Positions 3,673 through 40,681 of a DNA stretch of 64,000 nucleotides are shown here, in pieces. Source of the stretch: a virus. Under the pieces are notes generated by a model that searched no databases, was not told the origin of the DNA, and saw nothing but the letters and a program-made list of their open reading frames with translations. The position numbers were made by a program, and so were the translations under genes. The stretch covers positions 271,192 to 335,191 of the IMG/VR virus record IMGVR_UViG_3300050821_002957, one strand, 5' to 3'. Numbering within the stretch: the stretch's first letter is position 1; each line of letters opens with the position of its first letter.

Positions 3673-4920
3673 ATGGCTGCACCTTCTTATACTGGCGATT
3701 TTTCCATCAAAAGCCTCATCCTTACGAACACGACCGGCGAAACGGTTGATTTGCGCTTTGTGATGCTGGAAATCAACGTTTATGAATCGCTTTGGAACAA
3801 CAACACCACTTGCGATATTCTGATCAATGACGCAAACAACCTGATCATGAATATTCCGATGTTTGGATATGAGACGTTGCTGTTAGAATTTCAGACGCCG
3901 AATGGAGAATTATGGTCGAAGACGTTCCGGCTCATGCGAATTACAGATAGAACGTTGACTAAGGAACGAGCCTTGGGATACATTCTCCATTTTGTAACGC
4001 TCGAAGCAATCACAAATTTGAAGACCAGAGTGAGCAAGTCGTACAAAGGCATGTTGATCTCTGATATGGTGGACGATCTCTTCAATAACTGGTTAGATTC
4101 AGACTCCGACATCAACATTGAGACTACAAAAAATCAATTCCATTTTATCATCCCAAACATTCCACCAATTCAGGCAATCAACTGGCTGTCTACGCACGCA
4201 AACTCGACGGGCTATAGTGGATCAAATTATCTTTTCTATGAGGACAAATACGGGTTCAACTTTGTCACGATGGAATCACGAATGGCACAGGATTCGAGTA
4301 AGACGTATTTGTTTCAAGTGGCAAACGTTCGTACCGATCCACCGGCTTTGCTTCCTGACTTCTCGACCAATGACGTGGCGGCACTTTCTTATACTCTCGA
4401 CAGTCAAAGTGACATCGTAGAGAACATGCGAGCAGGAATGTACGGTAACCAACTTCTTACGCACAGCCACTCTCGTAAAATTTGGCGCAGCTATACGTTC
4501 GATTATCCTTCTTCATTCGATAACTATACTCACTTGTACGACAGCAACATGCTAGAATCTCAGGCGACACAGGACACAAACAAACCGGCCAGTCGTCTAA
4601 AACTCTATCCAACTGGAGCCGATCAAGATGGTTATCCCTTTGTGCCTGAGCAGTGGCTTCCGATTCGTATTTCACAGTTACAGCAGTTGCACAACATCAG
4701 ATTCACAATTGCGATTCCTGGCGACTCTCAAAGGACTGTCGGTGAAGTAGTGACATTCAATCTTCCGTCGCCGCAGCAGCCAGTCAATAATCAACAGGTA
4801 AACGACAAATATTATGCTGGTGACTTTTTGGTCCAAAGTGTCCGACACATCATCGACATTGACAAGTATCGGACTGTCCTTGAACTAACCAAAGATTCTA
4901 CGTTGTCGCAATATCCTTAA
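3673..4920 (+). CDS. hypothetical large N/T/Q-rich protein, possibly structural
   Basis: Long clean ORF. The internal Met (MAAPSYTG) was chosen as start so the gene does not overlap the convergent minus-strand gene. Confidence 0.35.
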   Translation: MAAPSYTGDFSIKSLILTNTTGETVDLRFVMLEINVYESLWNNNTTCDILINDANNLIMNIPMFGYETLLLEFQTPNGELWSKTFRLMRITDRTLTKERALGYILHFVTLEAITNLKTRVSKSYKGMLISDMVDDLFNNWLDSDSDINIETTKNQFHFIIPNIPPIQAINWLSTHANSTGYSGSNYLFYEDKYGFNFVTMESRMAQDSSKTYLFQVANVRTDPPALLPDFSTNDVAALSYTLDSQSDIVENMRAGMYGNQLLTHSHSRKIWRSYTFDYPSSFDNYTHLYDSNMLESQATQDTNKPASRLKLYPTGADQDGYPFVPEQWLPIRISQLQQLHNIRFTIAIPGDSQRTVGEVVTFNLPSPQQPVNNQQVNDKYYAGDFLVQSVRHIIDIDKYRTVLELTKDSTLSQYP

Positions 4921-7751: not shown

Positions 7752-7796
7752 TGTTTGTTATAAAGAACCTCAGTTGAGAGCGTTCCTACTCAAGGC

Positions 7797-10471: not shown

Positions 10472-11722
10472 CTAGAGACGCCCGGAACGGATCAGTTCGA
10501 GGGCCTGTTCTTTCGATTTGATGTGACCGGCAAGCTGCCCATTCTCGGCGGCGTCCAGGATTCGTTTGAAATCTGGTCCTGGCTTCATTCCAAGTGCCTT
10601 CAGATCATCCCCATTGACAAATTTTGCCGGATTCAAGTCTTCGGCCTTCATGTTGGCAAACATTTTTGACAACATCTGGAAAGCAGCGATATGGACGTGC
10701 TTGTCCTGAGCCTCTGTACGGCATCCATAGAGCTTCAAGGCGTCGGGGAACAGCTTCTCACGCATCAGGCGTTTCAACACGTCCAGCGTCGTTCCAGCCG
10801 TCACAGAACCGATTCTGGACTGAAGGTCGATGATGCCGGTAATCTGCTTGATCGTGTCGTTAAAAAACTTCAGACGTTTACCAATTTTTTCTGCGCTCCC
10901 TGAAGGCAACATGTACAACGCACCAGCCAAACCCAATGCTGGATTGATGTTGGTGCCGATGAACGAAAGTGTTGCCATCATCTGAGCGTAATCATACGGA
11001 GTCATGTGGGCAACTTCCGGCAGAACATGCTCTAAGATGCCGGTGTTGTTCATTCCCTTGATTGTCTTGTGAGCGTCATGACCCATTGCCTTGGTCAATT
11101 CCTCTGTTATGCGCTCTACGTCCATTTTCGCAATGTTCGGAGCGTGCGCCTGCATTGCCGCCAGTGTCTCTGGGTGGATCTCAAATCCGAGCTTCGCCTG
11201 AAAACGATGTGCCCGAAGCATCCGAAGATGATCCTGTGTAAAACGGTCGTTCGGATTGCCGACACATTTGATGAGGCCGTTTTTTGCATCGGCCTTGCCA
11301 CCATGAAAATCGATGATGTCACCAGTGAACGGGTCCATGTACATTGCATTGACGGTGAAGTCACGCCGGTTGGAATCTTGTTGTTGATCACGAGTGTATT
11401 CGACATCATCTGGACGCCGACCATCAGTGTACTTTCCATCTTTGCGGAATGTGGCAATGTCGATACCGTGGCAGACAACGACACCAAATGATTTTCCTAC
11501 GACACTTGTTCCTGGGAAAAGTTTGAGAACTTCTTCAGGTGTGGCGTCAGTTGCTACGTCAAAATCTTTTGGCTTGTGGCCGGTCAAAAAATCACGAACA
11601 CAACCGCCAGCGAGATAGCCGACAAAGCCGTGTCTGCGAAGCGTAGTGATTACGTCTTTGGCGTCGTCAAGCGTGCCATAGGTGGACTCCCGAAGGAGGG
11701 CGAATTGTGTAAATGAGAGCAC
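10472..11722 (-). CDS. cca: tRNA nucleotidyltransferase (CCA-adding enzyme)
   Basis: The pol-beta head motif of the CCA/poly(A) polymerase family is present (GYLAGGCVRDFLTGHKPKDFDVATDATPEEV). Length is 416 aa. Confidence 0.8.
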   Translation of the reverse strand: MLSFTQFALLRESTYGTLDDAKDVITTLRRHGFVGYLAGGCVRDFLTGHKPKDFDVATDATPEEVLKLFPGTSVVGKSFGVVVCHGIDIATFRKDGKYTDGRRPDDVEYTRDQQQDSNRRDFTVNAMYMDPFTGDIIDFHGGKADAKNGLIKCVGNPNDRFTQDHLRMLRAHRFQAKLGFEIHPETLAAMQAHAPNIAKMDVERITEELTKAMGHDAHKTIKGMNNTGILEHVLPEVAHMTPYDYAQMMATLSFIGTNINPALGLAGALYMLPSGSAEKIGKRLKFFNDTIKQITGIIDLQSRIGSVTAGTTLDVLKRLMREKLFPDALKLYGCRTEAQDKHVHIAAFQMLSKMFANMKAEDLNPAKFVNGDDLKALGMKPGPDFKRILDAAENGQLAGHIKSKEQALELIRSGRL

Positions 11723-14102: not shown

Positions 14103-14190
14103 TTGGTGGGACGGGTGTGAGTCGAACACACAGGGTTCCAAGGAACATCCGCTTTACAGGCGGCTCTCGCTCCCTACGAGACTACCATCC
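14103..14190 (-). tRNA. tRNA-Tyr (anticodon GTA), type II with a long variable arm, CCA encoded
   Basis: Hand fold: acceptor GGGATGG/CCGTCCC, anticodon loop CTGTAAA, variable-arm stem GTTCC/GGAAC, T-arm GTGTG-TTCGACT-CACAC, discriminator A, CCA. Confidence 0.6.
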
Positions 14191-14712
14191 CAAGTTTGAA
14201 TGATAGGGCAGGAACGGTTATACTAAAGGCTTAACAGAGTGCTACTGAAGCACGCCGCCGTTCACGCCCAAAGTATAATAATAGAGAGTCATAAAATTTG
14301 ATCTGTGACTCGTCCGGGTAACAACTTCATTCCGGCACCCAGTCACTTCAATATGTATACTAGCACTATTCTTGAGTGCTGTCAAGCTGCTATAGTGCTG
14401 GCAATCTTCTCAAGCTCAACAATGTCTGCTTCGGTAAGAGAGAAACTAAGCACACTATCAAGTAACTGCCATTCTACATCATGCTCAAACAGTGTTGTAT
14501 CGATGCCCTTGAACTTCGCCAAATGACAAAGCAACTTTCGACTCATTCGCATCAATACGGCACCTTGAAGACCAAGTAACCATAGATCCAGACATGCAGG
14601 ATCATGATGTATTCCCAGACAGTCGCCCACGGTTCTGGTGTGAACGACTGCATCAACAGCGTGAACAAAAGAATTTTGAAGACAGAACTTCGTATCTTAT
14701 CGACCGGAGTGT

Positions 14713-17422: not shown

Positions 17423-18519
17423 TATTTCACCCCTGCAAATTGTTCGATCATTGCTTGCTGGGAAGGCTGACCGGCCAGCGGATTCGCCGACGAAGGCTTC
17501 ACACCCTTTACCAGCCGCACATTGTGGAACGTCGTCGGATACTGATTGAAGCCTTTTCCGTGGACACTGTAGTTGCAGATCACTTTGTTGCGAACAGTGA
17601 AGCTCGATCCATCGGCGAAGTGAAACACAATCTCGCCCTGAAAGCCTGCGCCATTCACATGACCCTCGATGATTTCGGGAATGACACCGGAACCGAAACC
17701 GCTCATGATCATCTGATTGTCTTTCGCTTCAAGAACGACGGCCAGCTTGGTGACGTTTTTGTAGAGGAACATACGCTGGGCATAATCGGCGTCCTTCTGA
17801 GCGATCTTGCGGAGCAGATCCTTGAAATTTGGAACGAGGCGAGTATAGTTGCCGGTGTGCGAATCCCATCCTTCGCCTACAGTCTGTAACAAGAAATCGG
17901 CAGAGGTCGGCGTATATCGTTCGTTGCGTGTGCGAGGATGGTCCATGCGATATTGAACCGAAGAGACGAAATTGTTGAACAGGATGTCTTCGTACTGGAG
18001 GGTCAGACCGTCTGTCATGTCCTTCAGAACTTTCGTGACGAGGATTGCCGCTTCGGTGGTCGGCATCGGCGGAACGTAATCGTCGGCCTTCTCTTCTTCG
18101 CTGCGCCCGACACGCTTCACAATTTTGTCCTTCAGGAGCATCAGCGCATCATACAGGTCAACGATCTCAGCGCAGACGGCGAACCATTGAGCATTGTCAA
18201 ACTTCTTCTTTTTGGCGAGCTTCACTTTTCCGGCGACTTGATTGCCGTACATGAAAGTCAGATCGAAGGTATAGTTCTCGACCTTGGGAAAATGATAGGC
18301 AGCGCTAAAGGCTTCGCTGTACAGTCCACGATGGCTGTCCTCTGCGATACTGACGACGGTATTGAGTGCTTCTTTGGCGCTCTTGAATTCAGGATTGGGG
18401 ATCGAATCGGTGTAGGTGTTCAGAGCATTGACGACCGTCTGGAGGGCTTTCTTGCCCCAAGACGATTGATTCGCTTGGCAGGCGGCGTTCAACAGCGGGT
18501 ATTGATCTACGCTCTTCAT
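17422..18519 (-). CDS. hypothetical protein
   Basis: 365-aa ORF. A promoter TTGACA-N17-TATTCT preceded by AGATGCATCT lies at 18526-18575. Confidence 0.4.
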   Translation of the reverse strand: MKSVDQYPLLNAACQANQSSWGKKALQTVVNALNTYTDSIPNPEFKSAKEALNTVVSIAEDSHRGLYSEAFSAAYHFPKVENYTFDLTFMYGNQVAGKVKLAKKKKFDNAQWFAVCAEIVDLYDALMLLKDKIVKRVGRSEEEKADDYVPPMPTTEAAILVTKVLKDMTDGLTLQYEDILFNNFVSSVQYRMDHPRTRNERYTPTSADFLLQTVGEGWDSHTGNYTRLVPNFKDLLRKIAQKDADYAQRMFLYKNVTKLAVVLEAKDNQMIMSGFGSGVIPEIIEGHVNGAGFQGEIVFHFADGSSFTVRNKVICNYSVHGKGFNQYPTTFHNVRLVKGVKPSSANPLAGQPSQQAMIEQFAGVK

Positions 18520-18593
18520 GAAACTAGAATAGCAAACCTACCCTACCATGTCAACAGTAGATGCATCTTTTTCTGGAAGGAATATTTTATCTA

Positions 18594-18624
18594 CCTCTTG
18601 ACATATTGACGGCTGGTGCGCTAT
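18594..18624 (+). promoter_or_regulatory. sigma70-like promoter
   Basis: It reads TTGACA-tattgacggctggtgcgc-TATGCTGG. The -10 context TATGCTGG is the same as in the promoter at 10139. Confidence 0.4.
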
Positions 18625-18685
18625 GCTGGTACTGTCAAAGAGAGTCCCATTTTCAACGACTTACGTCCGTTGATAAATACTCTCC

Positions 18686-19090
18686 ATGAAAACCTTCCTC
18701 GAATTTATCTTGACCGAGAATGCCATGTTACCGGGCGTTGCTGGCGTAATGAAACACCAACGGGACAATGGTTTAGCCAAGGTAGGTGTTCATCCCAATT
18801 TTGCTGCCATTAAGAAGCAGCGTGAAGATAGCATCAACAAAGTTGGCACCCATCCAAATTTTGCTGAAATCTTACGTCGGCGTCAAGCAGGTCAAATGTC
18901 GGAAGAAGAAATGAACGAACTGCTTGGTCTATTCAAAAAGAAAAACGATGCAAAACCCTCGCCGTTTGCCAAACCAAAAAACGCAATTGGACATGGTGAC
19001 AAGGCTTATCGCACGAACCACCATTATGGGAACGGTGACATCGAACCATCCACCGTTCCTATTTTCAAACCAACTTGGCAGAATCGTTAG
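18686..19090 (+). CDS. hypothetical protein with an internal duplicated motif
   Basis: The segments VGVHPNFAAIKKQREDS and VGTHPNFAEILRRRQ are repeated. Confidence 0.35.
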   Translation: MKTFLEFILTENAMLPGVAGVMKHQRDNGLAKVGVHPNFAAIKKQREDSINKVGTHPNFAEILRRRQAGQMSEEEMNELLGLFKKKNDAKPSPFAKPKNAIGHGDKAYRTNHHYGNGDIEPSTVPIFKPTWQNR

Positions 19091-19629
19091 AAACGTCTCG
19101 GACACGCTGGCGGCTTCGCACAATCACCGGGTCCACCATTGTCCTTGGTCACTTTTTTGTTGGGAACTTTCTTCGGCTTTTTGACCGGCGACAATTGATG
19201 TGCATCGAAGTATTGAACGTCAGTCAAAATGCCTTCATGCAGTTTTGATGATTGCAGACCGACTCGCTGTGACGACGTAAAAAATTTGGACAATGAAATC
19301 GCAACACCTTCAAAATCTGAAATGCTGTCTTTGTACGTGTCGCCGAGTACGATCATATCCGGCTCTTCTTCATATGAAATCACTGCGGCCCCAGGTTGTT
19401 CTTGGAGAAGCTGTTCGTCAATGTAGAATCCGTCCATCGGCCCACCGTCAGCCTTGAGACCCGGAGGCTGAATTGCCACTCGGACGCACGCATACAGGAA
19501 AGTTGTGCGAGAGACAGCGACACCTTTAAGTCCTGAAATGGGATCTTTGTATGTTCTGCCGAGCGTTGCTACTTCTGTCGCTGCGGTCTTCAAAACGTTT
19601 TCACGATCAATTGGTTTGGAGTTTGCCAT
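19087..19629 (-). CDS. hypothetical protein with a duplicated module
   Basis: The segments YKDPISGLKGVAVSRTTF and YKDSISDFEGVAISLSKF are repeated, and the C-terminal tail is basic. Confidence 0.35.
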   Translation of the reverse strand: MANSKPIDRENVLKTAATEVATLGRTYKDPISGLKGVAVSRTTFLYACVRVAIQPPGLKADGGPMDGFYIDEQLLQEQPGAAVISYEEEPDMIVLGDTYKDSISDFEGVAISLSKFFTSSQRVGLQSSKLHEGILTDVQYFDAHQLSPVKKPKKVPNKKVTKDNGGPGDCAKPPACPRRF

Positions 19630-19674
19630 GTGTCGAGAGTAACATGATGGCTATAGGTGTGTCAATAATTTTAA

Positions 19675-19762
19675 TGGCTGGAGGAGCAGGACTCGAACCT
19701 GCATATGAGCTTTCGCTACGACACATTAACAGTGTGCTGCCTTACCGTTAGGCGACCCTCCA
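19675..19762 (-). tRNA. tRNA with a GTT (Asn) anticodon loop but a long, type-II-like variable arm; CCA encoded
   Basis: Hand fold: acceptor TGGAGGG/TCCTCCA, D-arm GCCT-AACGGTA-AGGC, anticodon loop CTGTTAA, an 18-nt variable region with an AGC-GAAA-GCT hairpin, T-arm GCAGG-TTCGAGT-CCTGC, then G and CCA. Confidence 0.45.
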
Positions 19763-19783
19763 ATATAAATGGATGTATGGCAA

Positions 19784-20217
19784 ATTCACAGAAAGTAAAA
19801 GAATGGCGCAAAAGAACCAAACAACGAATGATTGATGCAATGGGTGGATCGTGTGTAGTCTGTGGCTACACTCGTTGTTCAGCCTCATTAGGATTTCATC
19901 ATCTCGATCCGAGCAAGAAACATTTTGGTTTCGGAGGTCTTCGTGCCAACCCAAAATCTTGGGAGAAGATCAGCGAAGAACTACGAAAATGCGTTCTGAT
20001 TTGCAATCGTTGTCACGGAGAAGTACATGATGGTATAACCATCATTCCCATTAATGCAAAACGGTACGACGAAAGTTATGCTCAGAAATTTGGAAGAAGA
20101 AAAATGGCTCCGGGGACAGGACTCGAACCTGTAACATCCGCTTTAACAGAGCGGCGCTCTACCATTGAGCTACCCCGGAATGAGGTTGCTTCTTTGGTTA
20201 GGGTCACGCCGTTTTAA
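19784..20217 (+). CDS. HNH homing endonuclease
   Basis: Motifs CVVCGY...HHLDP...CNRCHGEVHDG are present. The gene lies between two tRNA genes and its 3' end overlaps the antisense tRNA at 20105-20179. Confidence 0.65.
20105..20179 (-). tRNA. tRNA-Asn (anticodon GTT), CCA encoded
   Basis: Hand fold: acceptor TCCGGGG/CCCCGGA, D-arm GCTC-AATGGTA-GAGC, anticodon arm CCGCT-CTGTTAA-AGCGG, T-arm ACAGG-TTCGAGT-CCTGT, discriminator G, CCA. Confidence 0.65.
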
Positions 20218-20260
20218 AGCGTGACCTACGTATTGTAGGTTGTGTAAGTCATCACAATTC

Positions 20261-20268
20261 TATTTATA
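20261..20268 (-). promoter_or_regulatory. TATAAATA late-promoter-like motif within a conserved 28-mer
   Basis: The 28-mer GTCATCACAATTCTATTTATACCACGGT recurs at 22351-22378. Both copies lie upstream of minus-strand tRNA genes. Confidence 0.35.
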
Positions 20269-20520
20269 CCACGGTGTTTTGAAACTGTCAACCTTTTATT
20301 TTACATTGACTCCGATCATTCGTCATACCGATCCATGAATTCTCTAACGTCATCAATACGAATTACAAACAAAATGATGAACAGAGGACCGCCGATGCAA
20401 AATAACACTCTGGCAGTTTGCTCCATGTCCATTATCATCTCAAAGAACCCCGCAAGAAAAAGCAAAATGAATGCCAGCCGCCAGCAATTCTTCCAGTTGA
20501 TCTTCACATAATCGAACATG

Positions 20521-21456
20521 TTACACCACCAAATCTTTGGGCAAGCGTTCAGTCCGTGCAATCTCTTCTGCGGTCGGTTTGATCACATTGCCGACGATTC
20601 CACCGAAGATTGCTCCGACCGTATCTGTGTCGCCACCGACCTCAATGAAGCTGTTGATGCAGGATGCGAACGAAAGACCTTTTTCCAAAGCCTGATGTGC
20701 CTGCCATAATGCAAAAGGAACTGTATCGACTGCCGTTACTTCTTTGCCGTTTCCAACCTTGCCAATTATTCCCCAATTGGTTTCGTTAAATGCACCCTCA
20801 CTGGCGACCCATTCGATGCGATCACGAAGTTCCCCTGATGGTGTGTATTTGATGATGTTTAACCAGAAGTCTTCCTCAGGTCTTCCATAAGTTACGTTTG
20901 CTGCGGCTATGGCGACCGCTATCGAACCGGCAATAGCATCGACGTGATAATGGGTCACTTCGGCAGATAGACGTGCTTCTTGCGCTACAAGGCCATAGTC
21001 AGGTCCAAAGTGTGCGCCAATGACAGCATCACGCATTGCCGATCCGTTGCCTTTTGAGCCGATGCCCGGTCCCCACCAATTCTTGCTATGCTCAAGCCAA
21101 TTGTCGGAGTCATAGCTATAGGTCGTCAACAAACCACGAGTGCCACGCCCATAACCACGCTGAGGATCAACATGAAAATTACGAGCTAATTCCTGAGCGA
21201 GTTCGAGTTGATTGATCGTATTGAATCGGTACAAAGTTCTAACGACACCAATACCGACATGTGTGTCGTCTGTCCAGGGATAGAGAATGTCAATTTTTGT
21301 GATCCCTCGTTCAGTGGCGACATTCCCAGCCTTGTAATATTCAGCCGGAAGAATCTTCATCTGATTTTCGCCTGCTGCATCGCCTACCGACAAGGCAAGA
21401 AGCGAAAGATAAGTTTCTTTCTTTTTGTACTGCATCGGAGCAAGACAGGGTGTCAT
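20521..21456 (-). CDS. ADP-ribosylglycohydrolase (ARH/DraG family)
   Basis: Several ARH motifs are present: LSVGDAAGE, PWTDDTHVG, GNGSAMR and GGDTDTVGAIFGGIVG. Confidence 0.8.
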   Translation of the reverse strand: MTPCLAPMQYKKKETYLSLLALSVGDAAGENQMKILPAEYYKAGNVATERGITKIDILYPWTDDTHVGIGVVRTLYRFNTINQLELAQELARNFHVDPQRGYGRGTRGLLTTYSYDSDNWLEHSKNWWGPGIGSKGNGSAMRDAVIGAHFGPDYGLVAQEARLSAEVTHYHVDAIAGSIAVAIAAANVTYGRPEEDFWLNIIKYTPSGELRDRIEWVASEGAFNETNWGIIGKVGNGKEVTAVDTVPFALWQAHQALEKGLSFASCINSFIEVGGDTDTVGAIFGGIVGNVIKPTAEEIARTERLPKDLVV

Positions 21457-21463
21457 ATTTCAC

Positions 21464-21676
21464 CTACTTGGTCGGTTTGTGCCAACCATATGCATGTTGA
21501 GCGGTCTTTGGCTCATATCCTAGAACGAGGTTACAGTTGGCAATACATTCGTCAAGATGACCGTCGCCTTTGTGAGTTGGATCTTGCAAAAATTGAAGTG
21601 CATGACGAATTGCTTGGCGTGCAGATCGAGCTTCGTTTTGCAGACGTTGAATTTGTTCTTCTATAGTTTCTACCAT
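21464..21676 (-). CDS. small hypothetical protein
   Basis: 70-aa ORF. Confidence 0.3.
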   Translation of the reverse strand: MVETIEEQIQRLQNEARSARQAIRHALQFLQDPTHKGDGHLDECIANCNLVLGYEPKTAQHAYGWHKPTK

Positions 21677-22191: not shown

Positions 22192-22267
22192 TGGCCGCTG
22201 GTTCCAGTTACGCTCTGGACTCTTCTGTTCTTCAGACAGACGCTTTCACTAGATTAGCTTACCAGCG
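22192..22267 (-). tRNA. tRNA-Phe-like (anticodon loop CTGAAGA) with a non-canonical T-loop
   Basis: Acceptor CGCTGGT/ACCAGCG, then G and CCA. The anticodon arm is TCTGT-CTGAAGA-ACAGA. The T-arm is TCCAG-AGCGTAA-CTGGA and lacks the TTC motif. Confidence 0.45.
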
Positions 22268-23735: not shown

Positions 23736-24060
23736 GGACTCCGACCGGGACTCGAACCCGGATTTCTCAGCTAGACGAATGACGGAGCATAGTGCGCTCT
23801 ACGTCGGAATTGGTGGATACACATGGGAATTGAACCCATAACCTTCTCGGTGCAAGCGAGTTGCTCTCCCAATTGAGCTAGTGACCCATAACTTTGTACC
23901 TCGAACAAATAAGTATCAGAGGGCTTGTCATTAGGAAAGATAACCCTCTAAATCCGGCTCGAAGCACTACAAAACTTTTGGTGGATCGCCAGGGATTTGA
24001 ACCCTGCTGTTATCCTCGGTGCAAGCGAGGCAAACACCCCAAGCATTTCCGCAACCCACA
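23736..24060 (-). pseudogene. three degenerate tRNA-like elements (tRNA pseudogenes or fragments)
   Basis: One element has a T-arm CCGGG-TTCGAGT-CCCGG with the D-arm GAGC/GCTC but an unfoldable anticodon region. A second has an Ala-like loop CTTGCAC with an acceptor of only 5 of 7 pairs. A third has a clean 3' half (anticodon arm, T-arm, GCGATCC-A-CCA) with no matching 5' acceptor strand. Confidence 0.35.
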
Positions 24061-25190: not shown

Positions 25191-26984
25191 CTACTCTTCG
25201 GTCTCTTCTGCGATCCCAGCACTTGAACCACGAATAAAATCCGTAACCAATGCTGGAACATTCGAGTCGAACCCAACGATGTCCAAAGAATACGGGTCCT
25301 TCGGATCTGCGATGGTAAATTGCGTAGAAACCATTCCCATCACGATCAGGCGCACATCATCCTGCCCACGATGCTTACGATACTGCTTGAGAGCCTGCGA
25401 CGGTTGCATTTGTCCAGCCCAAGTCTCATTATCCGTGATCACCATGAAAGCGTCTGCGTCGATGCCAGCCTTTTGAGCGTGAAGCATCGGTGCAGCACAA
25501 TCGGTTCCACCAGCCGACATGCGAGAGGTCTTTGCCAACGCAGTCTTCAGAGTGTCCTTTGCGGTGATGCCAATTTCCTGCATTCCCGTAGAAAATGCAT
25601 AGATAGCGTAATTCGGTTCCGTGCGAGCCACAACCATCGCCATTGCTGCGCCTGCTTGTGCTGCCGTGATTCCGGTGCCTTGGATGATGCTGGACGCCCA
25701 CGACATAGAACCAGAAACGTCCATGCCAATGTACGTAGCCTTACCAGTCGGAATTGCGTTTGCGAATGCCAAGTAGAACGTGTTCTCTAAAGCGTCCACA
25801 ATGGTCGGTACAACGGTCCAGGTCGCATCGCTGCGCTGACCGTGGCCTTGGCCGTAGGTGCCTTGTGCCAACAATACCTGGAGCGGGTGAATCTTGCTCT
25901 TCTTGACGTAGGCTTCATCGTTCAAACGAGACACGACGAGCTTCGATGCTGCCGACAGCGGCTTCAAGAGACCAATCTTCGACATGGTTCCAAGATTACG
26001 AACCATTGCAGTTACCGGCATCTTCTGAAGCAGAGCTTCCCAGACTTCCGGTTGCGTCTTAAACTGCGTCGGAATCATTTCGTGAGTCAATCCACCGTCG
26101 ATGATGCACTTTACGATAGTGCTCGTATCCGTCGCCTTCTTTGCGGTTTCATAGGCGGTGATCAACTTCGGTGCGTTCGATCCGGTCAACAAATCATAAG
26201 CGTTCTGATAGCGAGCACGCTGATTCTGAATTTCCGCAGAAGTCAGATCAGTCGTGCGATGGCTGTTGCCCTGCCACTTCTTGACAGAACGAGTCCAGTT
26301 CTGAGCAGCTTCGTTCAAGGCATCGAGACCACCGAAACGACCCCAAGCCAGCAAAGCACTCTTCATCGGATCAGTCGCCTTGACGTGTGCGAGGCTGACG
26401 AGATCACGAGTGGACCAGCCATCACGCTGTTGATACTTCGCCAACTGATAAGCCAGCGAATCTTCCGTGCGTTCGGTGTACCAGTTGCCGATTGCAGTCT
26501 TTACACCACGACCGTATCCACGCATGGAATCGAGGTACTCGTTGAAGTGGAACATGTGAGTACCGATACGTGCAACCTTGCTCAATTGCGACAGAGCATA
26601 AGCAGCAGTTTCAGCCGAACCAAAATTCGGTGTTGCGGCAACTGCCAGGGCAAACAATGCCGGATCGTTCTTCGGAGCACGGCCTGCTTGCGAAATGTTG
26701 ACGATCATATCGACCGTGCGCTTTCCATCCAACTGCAAGCACGCACGAACGTTCGCTGCGTTGTCTACAGTCATCTTCTTGGCAGATGCATAGTACGTCG
26801 GCGCATCGCTACCGAGAATCAAAAATCGTTCGAGCATCTGGAAGGGAGTGATGGTGAAGGTGTATCCACCAGCGTTGTTCTGCTTCATCTCTGCTTCCCG
26901 GCCCGGAATTGCCTGCGACTGTGATGTCTTCTTGCCGCTTAATACCGTTGCGTAATTGCTCTTTGCTGATCCTGCCTTTGCCAT
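25191..26984 (-). CDS. rsr: Ro60/Rsr orthologue (TROVE domain plus C-terminal vWA domain)
   Basis: The TROVE-like N-region (GGYTFTITPFQMLERFLILGSDAPTYY) is followed by the vWA MIDAS motif YIGMDVSGSM. A GGAGA SD sits 7 nt upstream of the ATG at 26984. The longer ORF start in the track is probably not used. Confidence 0.75.
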   Translation of the reverse strand: MAKAGSAKSNYATVLSGKKTSQSQAIPGREAEMKQNNAGGYTFTITPFQMLERFLILGSDAPTYYASAKKMTVDNAANVRACLQLDGKRTVDMIVNISQAGRAPKNDPALFALAVAATPNFGSAETAAYALSQLSKVARIGTHMFHFNEYLDSMRGYGRGVKTAIGNWYTERTEDSLAYQLAKYQQRDGWSTRDLVSLAHVKATDPMKSALLAWGRFGGLDALNEAAQNWTRSVKKWQGNSHRTTDLTSAEIQNQRARYQNAYDLLTGSNAPKLITAYETAKKATDTSTIVKCIIDGGLTHEMIPTQFKTQPEVWEALLQKMPVTAMVRNLGTMSKIGLLKPLSAASKLVVSRLNDEAYVKKSKIHPLQVLLAQGTYGQGHGQRSDATWTVVPTIVDALENTFYLAFANAIPTGKATYIGMDVSGSMSWASSIIQGTGITAAQAGAAMAMVVARTEPNYAIYAFSTGMQEIGITAKDTLKTALAKTSRMSAGGTDCAAPMLHAQKAGIDADAFMVITDNETWAGQMQPSQALKQYRKHRGQDDVRLIVMGMVSTQFTIADPKDPYSLDIVGFDSNVPALVTDFIRGSSAGIAEETEE

Positions 26985-27059
26985 ATCATTATCTCCTATG
27001 ATACCTAATTTTTTCGACTTCACCAGAATAACACATGCCTGATTGTTGTCAAGCATGTA

Positions 27060-29018: not shown

Positions 29019-29618
29019 CTACTCTTCTCTCGGACGAGGCTTGACGATCTTGTCGATGATGCCGTATGCCAGTGCTTCTTCGGCATCCATGATGTAGTCA
29101 CGCTCAAGATCCTTCTCGATGCGCTCAATCGGCTGACTTGTCAAATCAACCATCATGTTGACCAGACGCTTCTTGGTCTTTAAAATATGTTCGGCGTAGA
29201 TCGCAATGTCTGTAGCCTGTCCACCAAGACCGTACATCGACGGCTGGTGAATCATGACCTCAGCACCAGGAAGAGCAAACCGCTTGCCCTTGGTGCCACA
29301 CATCAAGATTGATGCACCCATCGAAGCTGCACGACCGACACAGGTAGTCTTGATATCGACACCGACGAGGTTCATGGTATCAATGATTGCCATGCCTGCG
29401 GAGATCGATCCACCCGGCGAATTGATGTAAATCTGAATGTCTTTCTCAGGATTTTCGGTCGAGAGATAAAGTAACTGTGCGACGACAGCGTTCGCAACAT
29501 AGTCATCAATCGGTGTTCCCAAGAAAATGATATTGTCTTTCAACAGACGTGAGTAAATATCATACGCACGTTCACCCTTGTGATCCGATTCGATTACGAT
29601 TGGAGTAAGCATTGACAT
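29019..29618 (-). CDS. clpP: ATP-dependent Clp protease proteolytic subunit ClpP
   Basis: It has the catalytic Ser context [11 protein letters not shown], the His context MIHQPS and the ClpP N-terminal region [13 protein letters not shown]. Confidence 0.85.
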
Positions 29619-29856: not shown

Positions 29857-30264
29857 CTACTTCAAATTCAGATCCTTACGAATCTTGTCAATCTTGTTAT
29901 TGGTAACTCGATTGTACTCGGACATGATGCGTTTCATAATCGTCCTGAACGATATCTGCACGATCAAAAAAAACATCGCTAACGGCCAGCAAATGACATC
30001 ATAAGCAATTTCCCCACGAAAATCAATTGCTTTCGGTGGTACAGCTTTTAGACGTATGTTGTTTTTTACATAATTCCGCCATTCATAGATGAGAAACTCT
30101 GGGATATTTTCACCCCGAATCCTATGAAACAACAAGAATCGTGCTCGTTCTGCCTCATAGAATCCAATCTCATCATCGACGTACAGCTTCCACCTGATGA
30201 ACCCCCATAAAAAACCCACGGCTGCATAACCAAACACAGCCAGGACATAGTAAAAAATTTTCAT
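29857..30264 (-). CDS. membrane protein
   Basis: An N-terminal TM helix and a second helix are present in 135 aa. Confidence 0.3.
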   Translation of the reverse strand: MKIFYYVLAVFGYAAVGFLWGFIRWKLYVDDEIGFYEAERARFLLFHRIRGENIPEFLIYEWRNYVKNNIRLKAVPPKAIDFRGEIAYDVICWPLAMFFLIVQISFRTIMKRIMSEYNRVTNNKIDKIRKDLNLK

Positions 30265-30797
30265 TGCGGCTCGAAGAGAATGACGTGTATGTTATCAAGC
30301 TCCTGTAGTCTATCATAAACCAATGCCTTTACGTCAACAAAATTCAGACCACCATTCGCACAACCTAACGCAGGCATCGCAAGAGACTTGATGAGTAAAC
30401 CTGACTTCAGCCGGTCCTTCAAATCATCGAGGCCAGCGGCGATCCATTCTAGTTTTGATCCATTTCTCCAATCGTCTTTCGTCGGAAAATTGATAATGAA
30501 TTCGTTGATCTGAGATGTTTGATAGTGTTCACATCCGCAGGCACACCACAACCCCTGATCATGGGCGTCAAAATCACATTCACAAAGACAGTCAGGGATT
30601 TCATGCCAAACCCAAACCTTACCAGTCTGAATGTACTTGCGAGCGCACAATTTCCTGTATTCGACGTACATGTCAGGATAACGCTGCTTGAACTGGAGTG
30701 CGATACCTTTGCCCATCACGCCGACACAATTCACAGTGTTGACGATAGCTTGTGCGCCGCAGTCGAAGAGGTTACCAGTCGTTCGTGTTTCGATCAT
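30261..30797 (-). CDS. macrodomain protein of the TARG1/DarG type (ADP-ribose hydrolase) with a Cys-rich insertion
   Basis: GNLFDCGAQAIVNTVNCVGVMGKGIALQFKQRYP resembles TARG1 GDLFSCP...CRMGAGIAVLFKKKF. The C-terminal LAMPALGCANGGL resembles LSMPRIGCGLDRL. An insert CLCECDFDAHDQGLWCACGCEH is present. Confidence 0.65.
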   Translation of the reverse strand: MIETRTTGNLFDCGAQAIVNTVNCVGVMGKGIALQFKQRYPDMYVEYRKLCARKYIQTGKVWVWHEIPDCLCECDFDAHDQGLWCACGCEHYQTSQINEFIINFPTKDDWRNGSKLEWIAAGLDDLKDRLKSGLLIKSLAMPALGCANGGLNFVDVKALVYDRLQELDNIHVILFEPQ

Positions 30798-39255: not shown

Positions 39256-39557
39256 TATTCCTCGTCGTTAATATCTAGCCAATCGGGAGCTTCCCAGGTT
39301 CGGTGAATAACTCTGACGTAGATTACACCTTCTTCTTCGTCAAGATTCCATTCAAGATCATCGCCAACTTCTATGTTCAATTCACGAACTAATCCATCTG
39401 GCAGTGTCATCATTCCGTTCGGTTGTATGACACAGGCATATGACCTATTACCAAATCCAGAGTTCACCCAGACACCTAAAATGGGTGGTTCATCATTATC
39501 TTCAGTCGGCTCTTCGTCAAAGTCTTCCGGTTCTAGCTCTGCGTAATCTTCAGCCAT
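39255..39557 (-). CDS. AbrB/SpoVT (MazE-like) swapped-hairpin domain protein with an acidic N-terminus
   Basis: It contains MMTLPDGLVRELNIEVGDDLEW. Confidence 0.35.
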   Translation of the reverse strand: MAEDYAELEPEDFDEEPTEDNDEPPILGVWVNSGFGNRSYACVIQPNGMMTLPDGLVRELNIEVGDDLEWNLDEEEGVIYVRVIHRTWEAPDWLDINDEE

Positions 39558-40681
39558 TTTCTTCCTACCCGAATCACTGACATTTCTGGCAACGGTTCTT
39601 TGAGTCTTGGATCGATAACTACACTACCATTTACATTTACGGCTCCGCTCTTCACCAGACGACTGCCCTCTGAGACCGAAGATGCCAAACCCATCAGCAC
39701 CAAGACTCGATCCAGGCGTGTATTGACCGAATGAAAAACCGGAATTCTTACAACTGGAATATCGACCGGCGCTTCACGATCTGAAAATCTCTTTGTCCAT
39801 TCAATTTCAGCGGTGTCTGCTTTTGGTTCGTCATGTAACCAATGAACAATTCGCCATGCCAAATATTTCTTAGATTGAAATGGTTGAGGATGCCAGCCAC
39901 ATTTATTTGGAAACAGAACCTCTTGCCATTGGCGCATTACATCATCAGCAATCGACATAACTTTGCTGAACATTTCAAATGGTTCATCCAGCAAACCAAT
40001 GTGATTACCGAACGACTTGGACATCTTTCGACCGTCCGTACCAAACAACAAAGGAACCGTCGCAATAACCTGAGGTTTCTCACCACGATCATGCATGTAC
40101 ATCCGGCCCATCAGCATGTTGTAAAATTGATCGTTGCCGCCAAGTTCAATATCTACACCTTCTCTGAAAGAGTCATATGCCTGAAGCATGGGGTATAACA
40201 TCTCATGCATAAAGACCGGAGTGTTTGTTACCTTGCGTTCTTTAAAATCGTCACGGCCACCGATTTGACTGAGGGTGAAATGGGACATGAGACGAATTAC
40301 ATCTTGCATCTTCATCTCGTCAAACCATTCGGCATTCTTTTTGACGACGGTTTTGGTTCGATCCAAAATTTTGAAAGCCTGTGTCATATAGCTCCAGGCG
40401 TTCGTATTGATTTCATCGTCAGAAAGCGCAGGCCGAAGCTGATTGCGCCCGGTCGGATCACCAATCGATGCTGTGGTGTTGCCGACGATCATCACAATGG
40501 TGTGCCCAGCATCCTGAAATTCACGCATCTTTTTCAACAGCACAGCATGACCAAGATGTAGGTCTGGTGCTGTGGGATCGAATCCGGCTTTCACACGTAA
40601 CGGATGACCTGACGCAATAAGAGCATCAAACTCCTTTTCGTCGAGGAGTTGCGTAAACCCGGATTTGAGTGATTGTTGCAC
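39533..40681 (-). CDS. tyrS: tyrosyl-tRNA synthetase
   Basis: It has the class I HIGH motif in a TyrRS context (GFDPTAPDLHLGH), the KMSKS motif and a C-terminal S4-like domain (LVKSGAVNVNG). Confidence 0.85.
   Translation of the reverse strand: MQQSLKSGFTQLLDEKEFDALIASGHPLRVKAGFDPTAPDLHLGHAVLLKKMREFQDAGHTIVMIVGNTTASIGDPTGRNQLRPALSDDEINTNAWSYMTQAFKILDRTKTVVKKNAEWFDEMKMQDVIRLMSHFTLSQIGGRDDFKERKVTNTPVFMHEMLYPMLQAYDSFREGVDIELGGNDQFYNMLMGRMYMHDRGEKPQVIATVPLLFGTDGRKMSKSFGNHIGLLDEPFEMFSKVMSIADDVMRQWQEVLFPNKCGWHPQPFQSKKYLAWRIVHWLHDEPKADTAEIEWTKRFSDREAPVDIPVVRIPVFHSVNTRLDRVLVLMGLASSVSEGSRLVKSGAVNVNGSVVIDPRLKEPLPEMSVIRVGRKWLKITQS

Follow-up and report, generated by a model that had tools for sequence, protein, structure and literature searches.

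We analysed a 64,000-nucleotide (nt) stretch of viral DNA, positions 271,192 to 335,191 of IMG/VR virus record IMGVR_UViG_3300050821_002957 and hereafter the window, in which a gene for an HNH endonuclease lies between two transfer RNA (tRNA) genes with an asparagine anticodon, one of which carries an extra variable arm. The locus is probably a resident canonical tRNA-Asn gene to which a two-part module has been added, consisting of a short HNH homing-endonuclease gene, of a family tied to tRNA-Asn genes, and a functional extra-arm tRNA-Asn. The extra-arm tRNA most likely arrived together with a tRNA-Asn-associated homing endonuclease, or is protected from it. According to textbooks, long variable arms are confined to the tRNAs for Leu, Ser and Sec and to bacterial tRNA-Tyr. 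In the window such an arm stands on a tRNA with asparagine identity, and it is not a lone oddity, as tRNAs of this kind make up about 7% of phage tRNA-Asn in one unselected sample and also occur in cultured phages and in bacteria.

ARAGORN finds seven tRNAs in the window, all on the minus strand like the neighbouring genes, and two of them have a GUU anticodon. The extra-arm (V-arm) tRNA-Asn gene, supported by ARAGORN, Rfam and the minimum-energy fold, occupies 19675-19762 (-); it is 88 nt long with an encoded CCA and has its anticodon at 19728-19730, and fold prediction places its 18-nt variable arm, CGUAGCGAAAGCUCAUAU, at 19703-19720 (-). The resident canonical tRNA-Asn(GUU) gene lies 342 nt away at 20105-20179 (-), is 75 nt long, also encodes its CCA (ARAGORN and Rfam), and is the ortholog of the lone tRNA-Asn of L249, a related viral contig. 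The HNH gene is the odd one out in strand: it runs on the plus strand from an ATG at 19777 to a stop codon at 20215-20217 and encodes a short-form protein of 146 amino acids. Gene callers put its start at 19705, inside the tRNA, and homologues point to 19777, which leaves a gap of 14 nt between the start codon and the 5' end of the 88-nt tRNA. Its last 113 nt contain the entire 75-nt tRNA-Asn in antisense, so that about 37 terminal codons read through the tRNA. A preliminary description of this DNA, made from the letters alone, had reported that the 3' end of the HNH gene overlaps the downstream tRNA-Asn on opposite strands; the overlap stands, with the correction that the HNH gene itself is the oppositely stranded element. 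An 8-base-pair (bp) hairpin just upstream of the resident tRNA-Asn (20202-20226, strand unassigned, read from the sequence) has the HNH stop codon within its loop. L249 has a hairpin at the corresponding place (~7755-7790) that differs in sequence, and this element, kept in position in both phages, could be a processing or termination signal. A scan for sigma-70 promoters and terminators gave nothing above shuffled expectation and explains the expression of neither gene.

The Rfam tRNA model (RF00005, gathering score 29) recognizes the 88-nt gene over its full length at 54.1 bits (E 1.6e-9) and the 75-nt gene at 73.8 bits. Fitting the 88-nt tRNA to the model takes 15 inserted nt within the variable region, and the covariance model thus gives this tRNA no type-I structure. 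The shared CTGTTAA (GUU) loop, CUGUUAA in both RNAs, and the 18-nt variable region with its own hairpin at 19675-19762, which the preliminary description had noted, were both confirmed, the former in the sequence and the latter in the fold. The 88-nt RNA reads UGGAGGG-UC-GCCU-AACGGUA-AGGC-A-GCACA-CUGUUAA-UGUGU-CGUAGCGAAAGCUCAUAU-GCAGG-UUCGAGU-CCUGC-UCCUCCA-G-CCA. It has the normal 7/5 acceptor/T arrangement, and at minimum energy it folds into a cloverleaf with one additional hairpin. All stems are intact and the D and T loops are normal, with a U1-A72 pair, G73 and the T loop UUCGAGU. The D arm has a 4-bp stem of class-I type (GCCU/AGGC) and a 7-nt loop, AACGGUA, containing G18-G19, and not the 3-bp stem and enlarged loop of class II. 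The variable arm, C-G(U)AGC-GAAA-GCUC-AUAU, has a stem of 4 bp from which one U bulges, is capped by a GAAA tetraloop of the GNRA type and is joined by linkers of 1 nt on the 5' side and 4 nt on the 3' side.

With more than 10 nt and a stem-loop of its own, this variable region is that of a class II tRNA, but the anticodon and discriminator are not those of Leu, Ser or Tyr, the anticodon being GUU and G73 fitting Ser alone of the three. Among familiar structures it comes near the bacterial class II tRNAs and especially tRNA-Tyr(GUA), in which an additional stem-loop likewise separates the anticodon arm from the T arm and whose anticodon differs from that of the 88-nt tRNA at position 36 alone. 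The E. coli tRNA-Tyr arm also resembles the one described here, with a 1-nt 5' linker, a stem of 3-4 bp and a 3' linker of 3-4 nt. The 88-nt tRNA differs from tRNA-Tyr(GUA) in having GUU and not GUA, G73 and not A73, U1-A72 and not G1-C72, and a class-I D arm with a 4-bp stem and 7-nt loop. An intron of the archaeal or group I type in the variable region was considered and discarded, as the 13-15 nt are too short for group I, there is no bulge-helix-bulge, and the hairpin is conserved throughout the class to which the tRNA belongs.

The determinants of bacterial AsnRS are the anticodon G34-U35-U36 and G73, and that of the amidotransferase GatCAB is U1-A72 (PMC9976931). All of these are present in the 88-nt tRNA, and because GUU, G73, U1-A72 and normal D and T loops have been kept, we infer that it would be charged with asparagine, either directly or via Asp-tRNA-Asn. 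The 88-nt tRNA is thus most likely a working asparagine tRNA that would decode AAY codons. Leaving out the anticodon, 41 of its 50 nearest neighbours are tRNA-Asn and the top 17 all have the arm, in a comparison set that is enriched for extra-arm tRNA-Asn by design. A blastn search with the 88-nt tRNA alone gave partial T-arm matches at most, and its exact core is absent from IMG/VR. Asparagine positions also look normal: across five proteins shared with L249, 59% of Asn columns are conserved, and where Asn is replaced it is by Ser, Thr, Asp, Lys, Gln or Glu, never by Tyr, and the invariant Asn58 of the HNH family is an AAC codon in the window gene. The preliminary description had raised the possibility of a chimera, an identity switch or a decoy. 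Because of the identity elements, the short arm of 4 bp, the class-I D stem of 4 bp and the normal Asn positions, we instead read the element as an asparagine tRNA, one that belongs to a large class with conserved Asn determinants.

The extent of this class was assessed with the pattern CTGTTAA-N(19-32)-GGTTCGAGTCC, which matched at least 120 viral contigs in IMG/VR. Among the matches listed, ARAGORN called 110 extra-arm tRNA-Asn(GUU) genes of 81-95 nt, 97 of them distinct; all 97 have G73 and 85 have U1-A72. Across these 97 genes the variable region measures 11-24 nt, with a stem usually of 2-5 bp, and 59 have a GNRA loop (GAAA in 48, GCAA or GUAA in 11). The 90 predicted hairpins comprise 45 different stem sequences, and the variable regions fold better than their shuffles (mean z -3.1). 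In modal geometry the 5' linker is 1 nt (56/90) and the 3' linker 3-4 nt (71/90), and the window tRNA has both. Some members have a Tyr-like D arm, unlike the window tRNA. An unselected scan that admitted both lengths, confined to one T-loop sequence, found the long arm in 8 of 120 loci (~7%). Cultured representatives also exist: the Aeromonas phages 44RR2.8t, 31, Riv-10 and avDM and Erwinia phages carry extra-arm tRNA-Asn genes that are annotated as plain tRNA-Asn. In two of the latter, pEp_SNUABM_01 (L444) and pEa_SNUABM_55 (L445), the 86-nt extra-arm tRNA-Asn is accompanied by an extra-arm tRNA-Lys(UUU) of 86-87 nt and a tRNA-Trp of 87 nt, every one of which has an unremarkable tRNA annotation. 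In the open-access literature searched we found no description of an extra-arm tRNA-Asn class or of its link to HNH genes, and an earlier description may exist elsewhere; the class is large and apparently undescribed.

Extra arms were also seen on other isotypes. Several tRNA-Ile(UAU) genes in viral contigs (L003-L122, L332-L443) have very long arms, with total lengths of 90-97 nt. L249 has an 86-nt tRNA-Trp (4820-4905) with the extra arm GAGU-GUAA-ACUC, and the tRNA-Trp of the window is 74 nt long. Since the L249 tRNA-Trp has an arm and that of the window does not, one phage lineage has the arm on different isotypes.

The second component of the proposed module is the HNH protein, which matched six PHROG families (best E 3.4e-27, residues 18-110), five of which bear the annotation HNH endonuclease, and which keeps every invariant Cys, His and Asn column of the motif CxxC ... 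HH ... N ... CxxCH ... H. The catalytic core spans residues ~1-108, residues ~110-146 are the antisense read-through of the tRNA, and 89 homologues align to just the first ~70% of the protein. In full-length relatives, typically of 180-190 amino acids, the core of about 105 residues precedes a CxxC...CSxxC ribbon and a weak helix-turn-helix; this C-terminal zinc-ribbon/helix-turn-helix domain is missing from both P0036 and the window protein. AlphaFold modelled the core with a predicted local distance difference test (pLDDT) score of 77-95 and the tail with 40-58. As to the beta-beta-alpha-metal fold of HNH enzymes, the top Foldseek matches were HNH nucleases (Cap5, T5 SciA, Cas9 HNH and Gme nickase), none of them significant (best E 0.085, TM-scores <0.3); the motif match to McrA (6ghc) was weak, and a PDB sequence search returned no significant structural match. 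The sole Pfam match was a weak, sub-threshold one to DUF7097, and the Pfam HNH models do not cover the family.

A profile scan identified 525 viral loci that encode a relative of this protein. A tRNA-Asn gene lies within 320 nt of the HNH gene in 46 of 67 non-redundant viral loci, and in 36 of the 67 (54%) the nearest tRNA is tRNA-Asn, which accounts for 10% of the tRNAs in those loci. A sub-group of the family adjoins tRNA-Thr(UGU). The HNH gene shares its strand with the adjacent tRNA-Asn in 48 of 51 cases, the opposite orientation seen in the window being found in the other three. In counts uncorrected for relatedness, the long arm is present in 21 of 51 HNH-adjacent tRNA-Asn genes (41%) versus 8/120 in the baseline scan (odds ratio 9.8, p 2e-7) and in 3 of 6 versus the same baseline when the same T loop is required (p 0.009), and the reverse comparison is marginal, with an HNH-family gene within 700 nt of 13/109 long-arm and 4/96 short tRNA-Asn genes (p 0.07). 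Several loci have more than one tRNA-Asn around the HNH gene, in the orders long-HNH-short-short (L030/L092), short-long-HNH (L262), HNH-short-long (L276), short-HNH-short (L258, L269) and long-long-HNH (L260).

The same search pattern, run on one genome per bacterial species, yielded at least 40 extra-arm GUU tRNAs by ARAGORN among the matches listed. Many of these belong to tightly packed tRNA arrays of Mycobacterium, Micromonospora and Planctomycetes. Seven Solirubrobacterales-type loci, on contigs of metagenome-assembled genomes (L157, L179, L180, L183, L186, L189 and L239), have the extra-arm tRNA-Asn standing alone in the gene order dnaG, HNH homologue, extra-arm tRNA-Asn; its position downstream of dnaG was found in the four loci inspected. 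The HNH homologue (hhalign probability 99.6%) lies 50-160 nt upstream of the tRNA in all seven and has an N-terminal helix-turn-helix and a zinc ribbon. The spot next to dnaG is the usual chromosomal position of tRNA-Asn in Actinobacteria. The presence of the gene in that place is, of the indirect evidence, the strongest sign that a tRNA-Asn with an extra arm is able to support ordinary translation. The niche of the HNH family is the flank of tRNA-Asn genes, in phages and in some bacteria. HNH genes have previously been noted in bacterial tRNA arrays (PMC6582537, PMC8421152).

The history of the locus can be followed in relatives, which were obtained by protein search and contig look-up, four in number, two of them with DNA. 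Megablast of 18500-21500 against cultured phages gave no match, no cultured phage being close at the DNA level, and searches for related loci with a neighbouring 180-amino-acid protein (viral contigs) and with the ADP-ribosylglycohydrolase (metagenome contigs) found no relatives. L249, the single relative with conserved synteny, is a 370-kb contig with the same gene order, and its proteins share 61-79% identity with their window counterparts. DNA homology between the two extends from 20269, upstream of the resident tRNA, as far as 20105, precisely its 3' end, and resumes at 19630, the start codon of the next gene. The segment between these points is 474 nt long in the window, where it holds the extra-arm tRNA along with the short HNH gene in inverted orientation, and 178 nt long in L249, with a decayed, co-oriented HNH-core remnant (…ELDKCDMICSNCHHEHH…). 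The 75-nt gene can be identified as the resident because its acceptor and D stems are shared with the L249 tRNA-Asn, and those of the 88-nt tRNA are not. The locus has evidently received HNH elements more than once. We also considered whether an inversion between the tRNA genes had given the HNH gene its orientation and rejected this, the two tRNAs being direct and not inverted repeats.

The preliminary description had regarded the locus as consistent with a recent mobile insertion that duplicated or diverged its target tRNA. The insertion is supported by the sporadic presence of HNH sequence right where the resident tRNA has its 3' end; the duplication is not, as the acceptor, D and anticodon stems all differ between the 88-nt and 75-nt tRNAs. 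HNH-less relatives with the same two tRNAs would have spoken against that description, and since L249 has a single canonical tRNA-Asn, with an HNH remnant, this is not what the comparison revealed. A comparable case is provided by the Erwinia phages, where pEp_SNUABM_01 has an HNH gene overlapping the 5' end of tRNA-Lys and pEa_SNUABM_55 lacks it, with the same tRNA block and flanks that are 95.9% identical. In both comparisons the HNH gene is sporadically present at an intergenic site beside a conserved gene, which is the mark of a free-standing homing endonuclease. L244, an unrelated AT-rich large phage, has an extra-arm tRNA-Asn, with a D arm similar to that of the window tRNA, 31 nt from a short HNH gene whose product is 58% identical to the window protein, in the same divergent arrangement. 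This suggests that the tRNA/HNH pair seen in the window and L244 can move as a unit.

The locus resembles those of T4/T6 SegB (GIY-YIG) and of the T5 HNH genes hegA-H, in which a small nuclease gene is situated between tRNA genes and is patchily distributed among relatives; T5 hegC and hegD also overlap tRNA genes. SegB is reported to cut in the T4 tRNA region and to drive the inheritance of flanking tRNA genes by co-conversion (PMC2330249), and amplification of a tRNA-Tyr locus is another of its abilities (PMC13096335). The HNH family differs from SegB, which has no isotype preference, in being tied to tRNA-Asn, with its sub-group at tRNA-Thr(UGU), and in being chromosomal in Solirubrobacterales as well. 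By analogy with SegB and the T5 HNH nickases, we infer that the family homes at tRNA-Asn, cutting HNH-less genomes at or near that gene; repair with an HNH-bearing genome as the template would then transfer the nuclease gene and, with it, the neighbouring tRNA. The over-representation of the extra-arm allele could be explained in two ways. It may hitch-hike by co-conversion, or a 13-bp insertion in the one length-tolerant part of the tRNA gene may split the nuclease target and leave the gene immune. An additional benefit, compatible with both, might be that the arm, which projects next to positions 40-48, the stretch in which tRNAs are cut by defence nucleases of the host, hinders these enzymes.

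Several observations weigh against this explanation. An HNH-family gene lies within 700 nt of just 13 of 109 long-arm tRNA-Asn genes, and 59% of HNH-adjacent tRNA-Asn genes are short, so that the arm is unneeded for coexistence with the nuclease. The enrichment counts ignore relatedness, and their baseline is limited to one T-loop sequence. The window HNH gene lacks the DNA-binding domain of its relatives, is on the opposite strand (3/51) and is separated from the tRNA by a gap of 14 nt, and it may be decaying rather than active. Moreover, Thr, Lys, Ile, Met and Trp tRNAs that do not adjoin this HNH family also have arms, and an Asn-specific cause therefore cannot be the whole story. A broader proposal, which we put forward only as a speculation that is more likely wrong than right, is that the extra arm on tRNA-Asn, and perhaps on the Lys, Thr, Ile, Met and Trp tRNAs too, is an adaptive insertion arising from conflict with a homing endonuclease. 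With the highly conserved tRNA-Asn gene as the target, a compact GNRA-capped hairpin in the variable loop would be the one change that leaves function intact. It would give immunity, and the allele would co-convert with the nuclease and spread via phages and tRNA arrays, would have replaced the chromosomal tRNA-Asn of Solirubrobacterales, and may blunt tRNA-cutting defences.

The alternative that fares best is that the arm is purely an RNA-level counter-defence which shields phage tRNA-Asn from tRNA nucleases, the HNH gene being adjacent through the general build-up of homing endonucleases in phage tRNA clusters. We consider this possible, at perhaps one chance in a few. Septu and retron-Eco7 cut tRNA-Tyr in its variable loop, and the T5 tRNA-Tyr escapes by means of a different variable loop (PMC13096335). 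PARIS AriB cuts the tRNAs for Lys (UUU), for Thr (UGU) and for Asn (GUU) at 40/41 and makes contact with the D loop as well (PMC12409363). In unselected phage loci, extra arms on class-I isotypes favour the tRNAs for ANN codons (Asn, Lys, Thr, Ile and Met; 19/268 vs 5/300, p 0.0014), and the majority of long-arm tRNA-Asn genes are without a nearby HNH gene, SegB for its part having no preference of isotype. The window tRNA also resembles the T5 tRNAs that escape defence (Lys, Thr and Asn against PARIS, Tyr against retron-Eco7) in being a phage copy structurally unlike the host tRNA of its isotype; however, the T5 tRNA-Asn is an ordinary tRNA of 78 nt, unlike the 88-nt tRNA of the window, and we found no report of escape via an added arm in the open-access literature searched. 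Counter-defence leaves the preference of the HNH family for tRNA-Asn unexplained (54% of nearest tRNAs vs 10% background), as it does the several-fold enrichment of long arms beside HNH genes and the dnaG-adjacent tRNA-Asn of Solirubrobacterales, which has both an arm and an HNH neighbour. That an extra arm would block any nuclease is itself a supposition.

It has also to be considered whether the HNH-like protein is a domesticated partner of the extra-arm tRNA-Asn, such as a regulator or a processing or maintenance factor, and not a selfish homing endonuclease. The Solirubrobacterales-type loci lend this some weight: the order dnaG-HNH-tRNA is kept in all seven while the HNH proteins are mutually only 46-77% identical, which suggests long retention, and in the L179 homologue, the single sequence read, the last metal-binding His of the motif has given way to Glu. 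An HNH gene of Anabaena lies upstream of a tRNA array and is co-regulated with it (PMC8421152). In phages, however, the HNH gene behaves selfishly, being sporadic, often truncated or a remnant (window, L244, L249) and absent from close relatives, and most extra-arm tRNA-Asn genes have no HNH gene beside them. We consider domestication improbable.

We regard it as very improbable that the 88-nt tRNA is a mis-charging or recoding tRNA, in which SerRS or a phage TyrRS would load Ser or Tyr on GUU. Changing the identity of tRNA-Tyr to Ser needs a longer arm, and the arm here has just 4 bp, on a tRNA with a class-I D stem and the 7/5 arrangement. The idea is prompted by the nev-tRNAs of nematodes (PMC3333845) and the allo-tRNAs of bacteria and phages (PMC5389517), which are likewise reported to combine a class-II-like arm with an anticodon outside Leu, Ser and Tyr. 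In addition, G73 is the discriminator of tRNA-Ser too, genes for a TyrRS (39533-40681) and for an unusual tRNA-Tyr are present in the window, and some class members have a Tyr-like D arm. The nev- and allo-tRNAs, however, keep Leu or Ser identity and mis-charge, the allo-tRNAs having an 8/4 or 9/3 arrangement, whereas the 88-nt tRNA has neither such an arrangement nor a Leu or Ser identity with a foreign anticodon; its identity fits its own anticodon. The class as a whole keeps G73 (97/97) and U1-A72 (88%), and in E. coli G73 disfavours TyrRS and LeuRS (PMC9976931). Recoding would further make decoding ambiguous, with a canonical tRNA-Asn 342 nt away, and it sits poorly with the normal Asn positions relative to L249 and with a like tRNA in the dnaG-adjacent position of Solirubrobacterales. 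That the element is a non-functional pseudo-tRNA or decoy left by a sloppy insertion is scarcely credible: it scores 54 bits against 74 for its canonical neighbour, is redundant beside that copy and shares the phage with other odd tRNA-like sequences (22195-22267, 23979-24057), but it has intact stems, G18-G19, a normal T loop and an encoded CCA, and its arm has the modal geometry of a large conserved class with compensatory variation.

The window derives from a phage contig of at least 405 kb, identical sequence of which was found in three sequencing sources. This very large phage has an RNA and translation gene set of its own: the CCA-adding enzyme (10472-11722), the ADP-ribosylglycohydrolase (20521-21456), a Ro60/TROVE protein with a vWA domain (25191-27056), ClpP (29019-29618) and a weak Macro-domain match (30261-30797) form a cluster, and the tyrosyl-tRNA synthetase is encoded on the minus strand. 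The tRNA-Tyr(GUA) at 14104-14191 (-) is 88 nt long and atypical, with a best Rfam match to tRNA-Sec at 29.8 bits, below threshold, and a minimum-energy fold with a 6-bp D stem. The tRNA-like sequence at 22195-22267 (-) scores 39.7 bits with the Rfam tRNA model and has the anticodon loop CUGAAGA (GAA, Phe), but its T loop, AGCGUAA, is degenerate; it is not among the ARAGORN tRNAs, and in the counterpart region of L249 a normal tRNA-Phe stands just before tRNA-Trp in the tRNA cluster. Two tRNA-Ala(UGC) genes occupy 23815-24057 (-), of which the one at 23979-24057 is 79 nt long with an aberrant D arm, and a sub-threshold Rfam match lies between them at 23898-23966. Both are downstream of the Ro60-like gene, and a Y-RNA-like partner may be present.

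In summary, the extra-arm tRNA class and the tRNA-Asn-associated HNH family co-occur from giant phages to a bacterial chromosome. A related departure from the usual division of tRNAs is found in Streptomyces coelicolor, where type I and type II tRNA-Leu are reported to coexist and to be charged by one synthetase (PMC6614811); there a class II isotype has lost its arm, whereas in the window a class I isotype has gained one. If the extra-arm tRNA-Asn is charged with asparagine, then AsnRS or the ND-AspRS/GatCAB route, EF-Tu and the ribosome would all accept class II architecture on a class I isotype, which would be useful for tRNA engineering. The phages pEp_SNUABM_01 and pEa_SNUABM_55 constitute a ready experimental pair. 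The isotype-specific link to an HNH family also provides a testable idea of how selfish and immune nucleases may shape tRNA structure.

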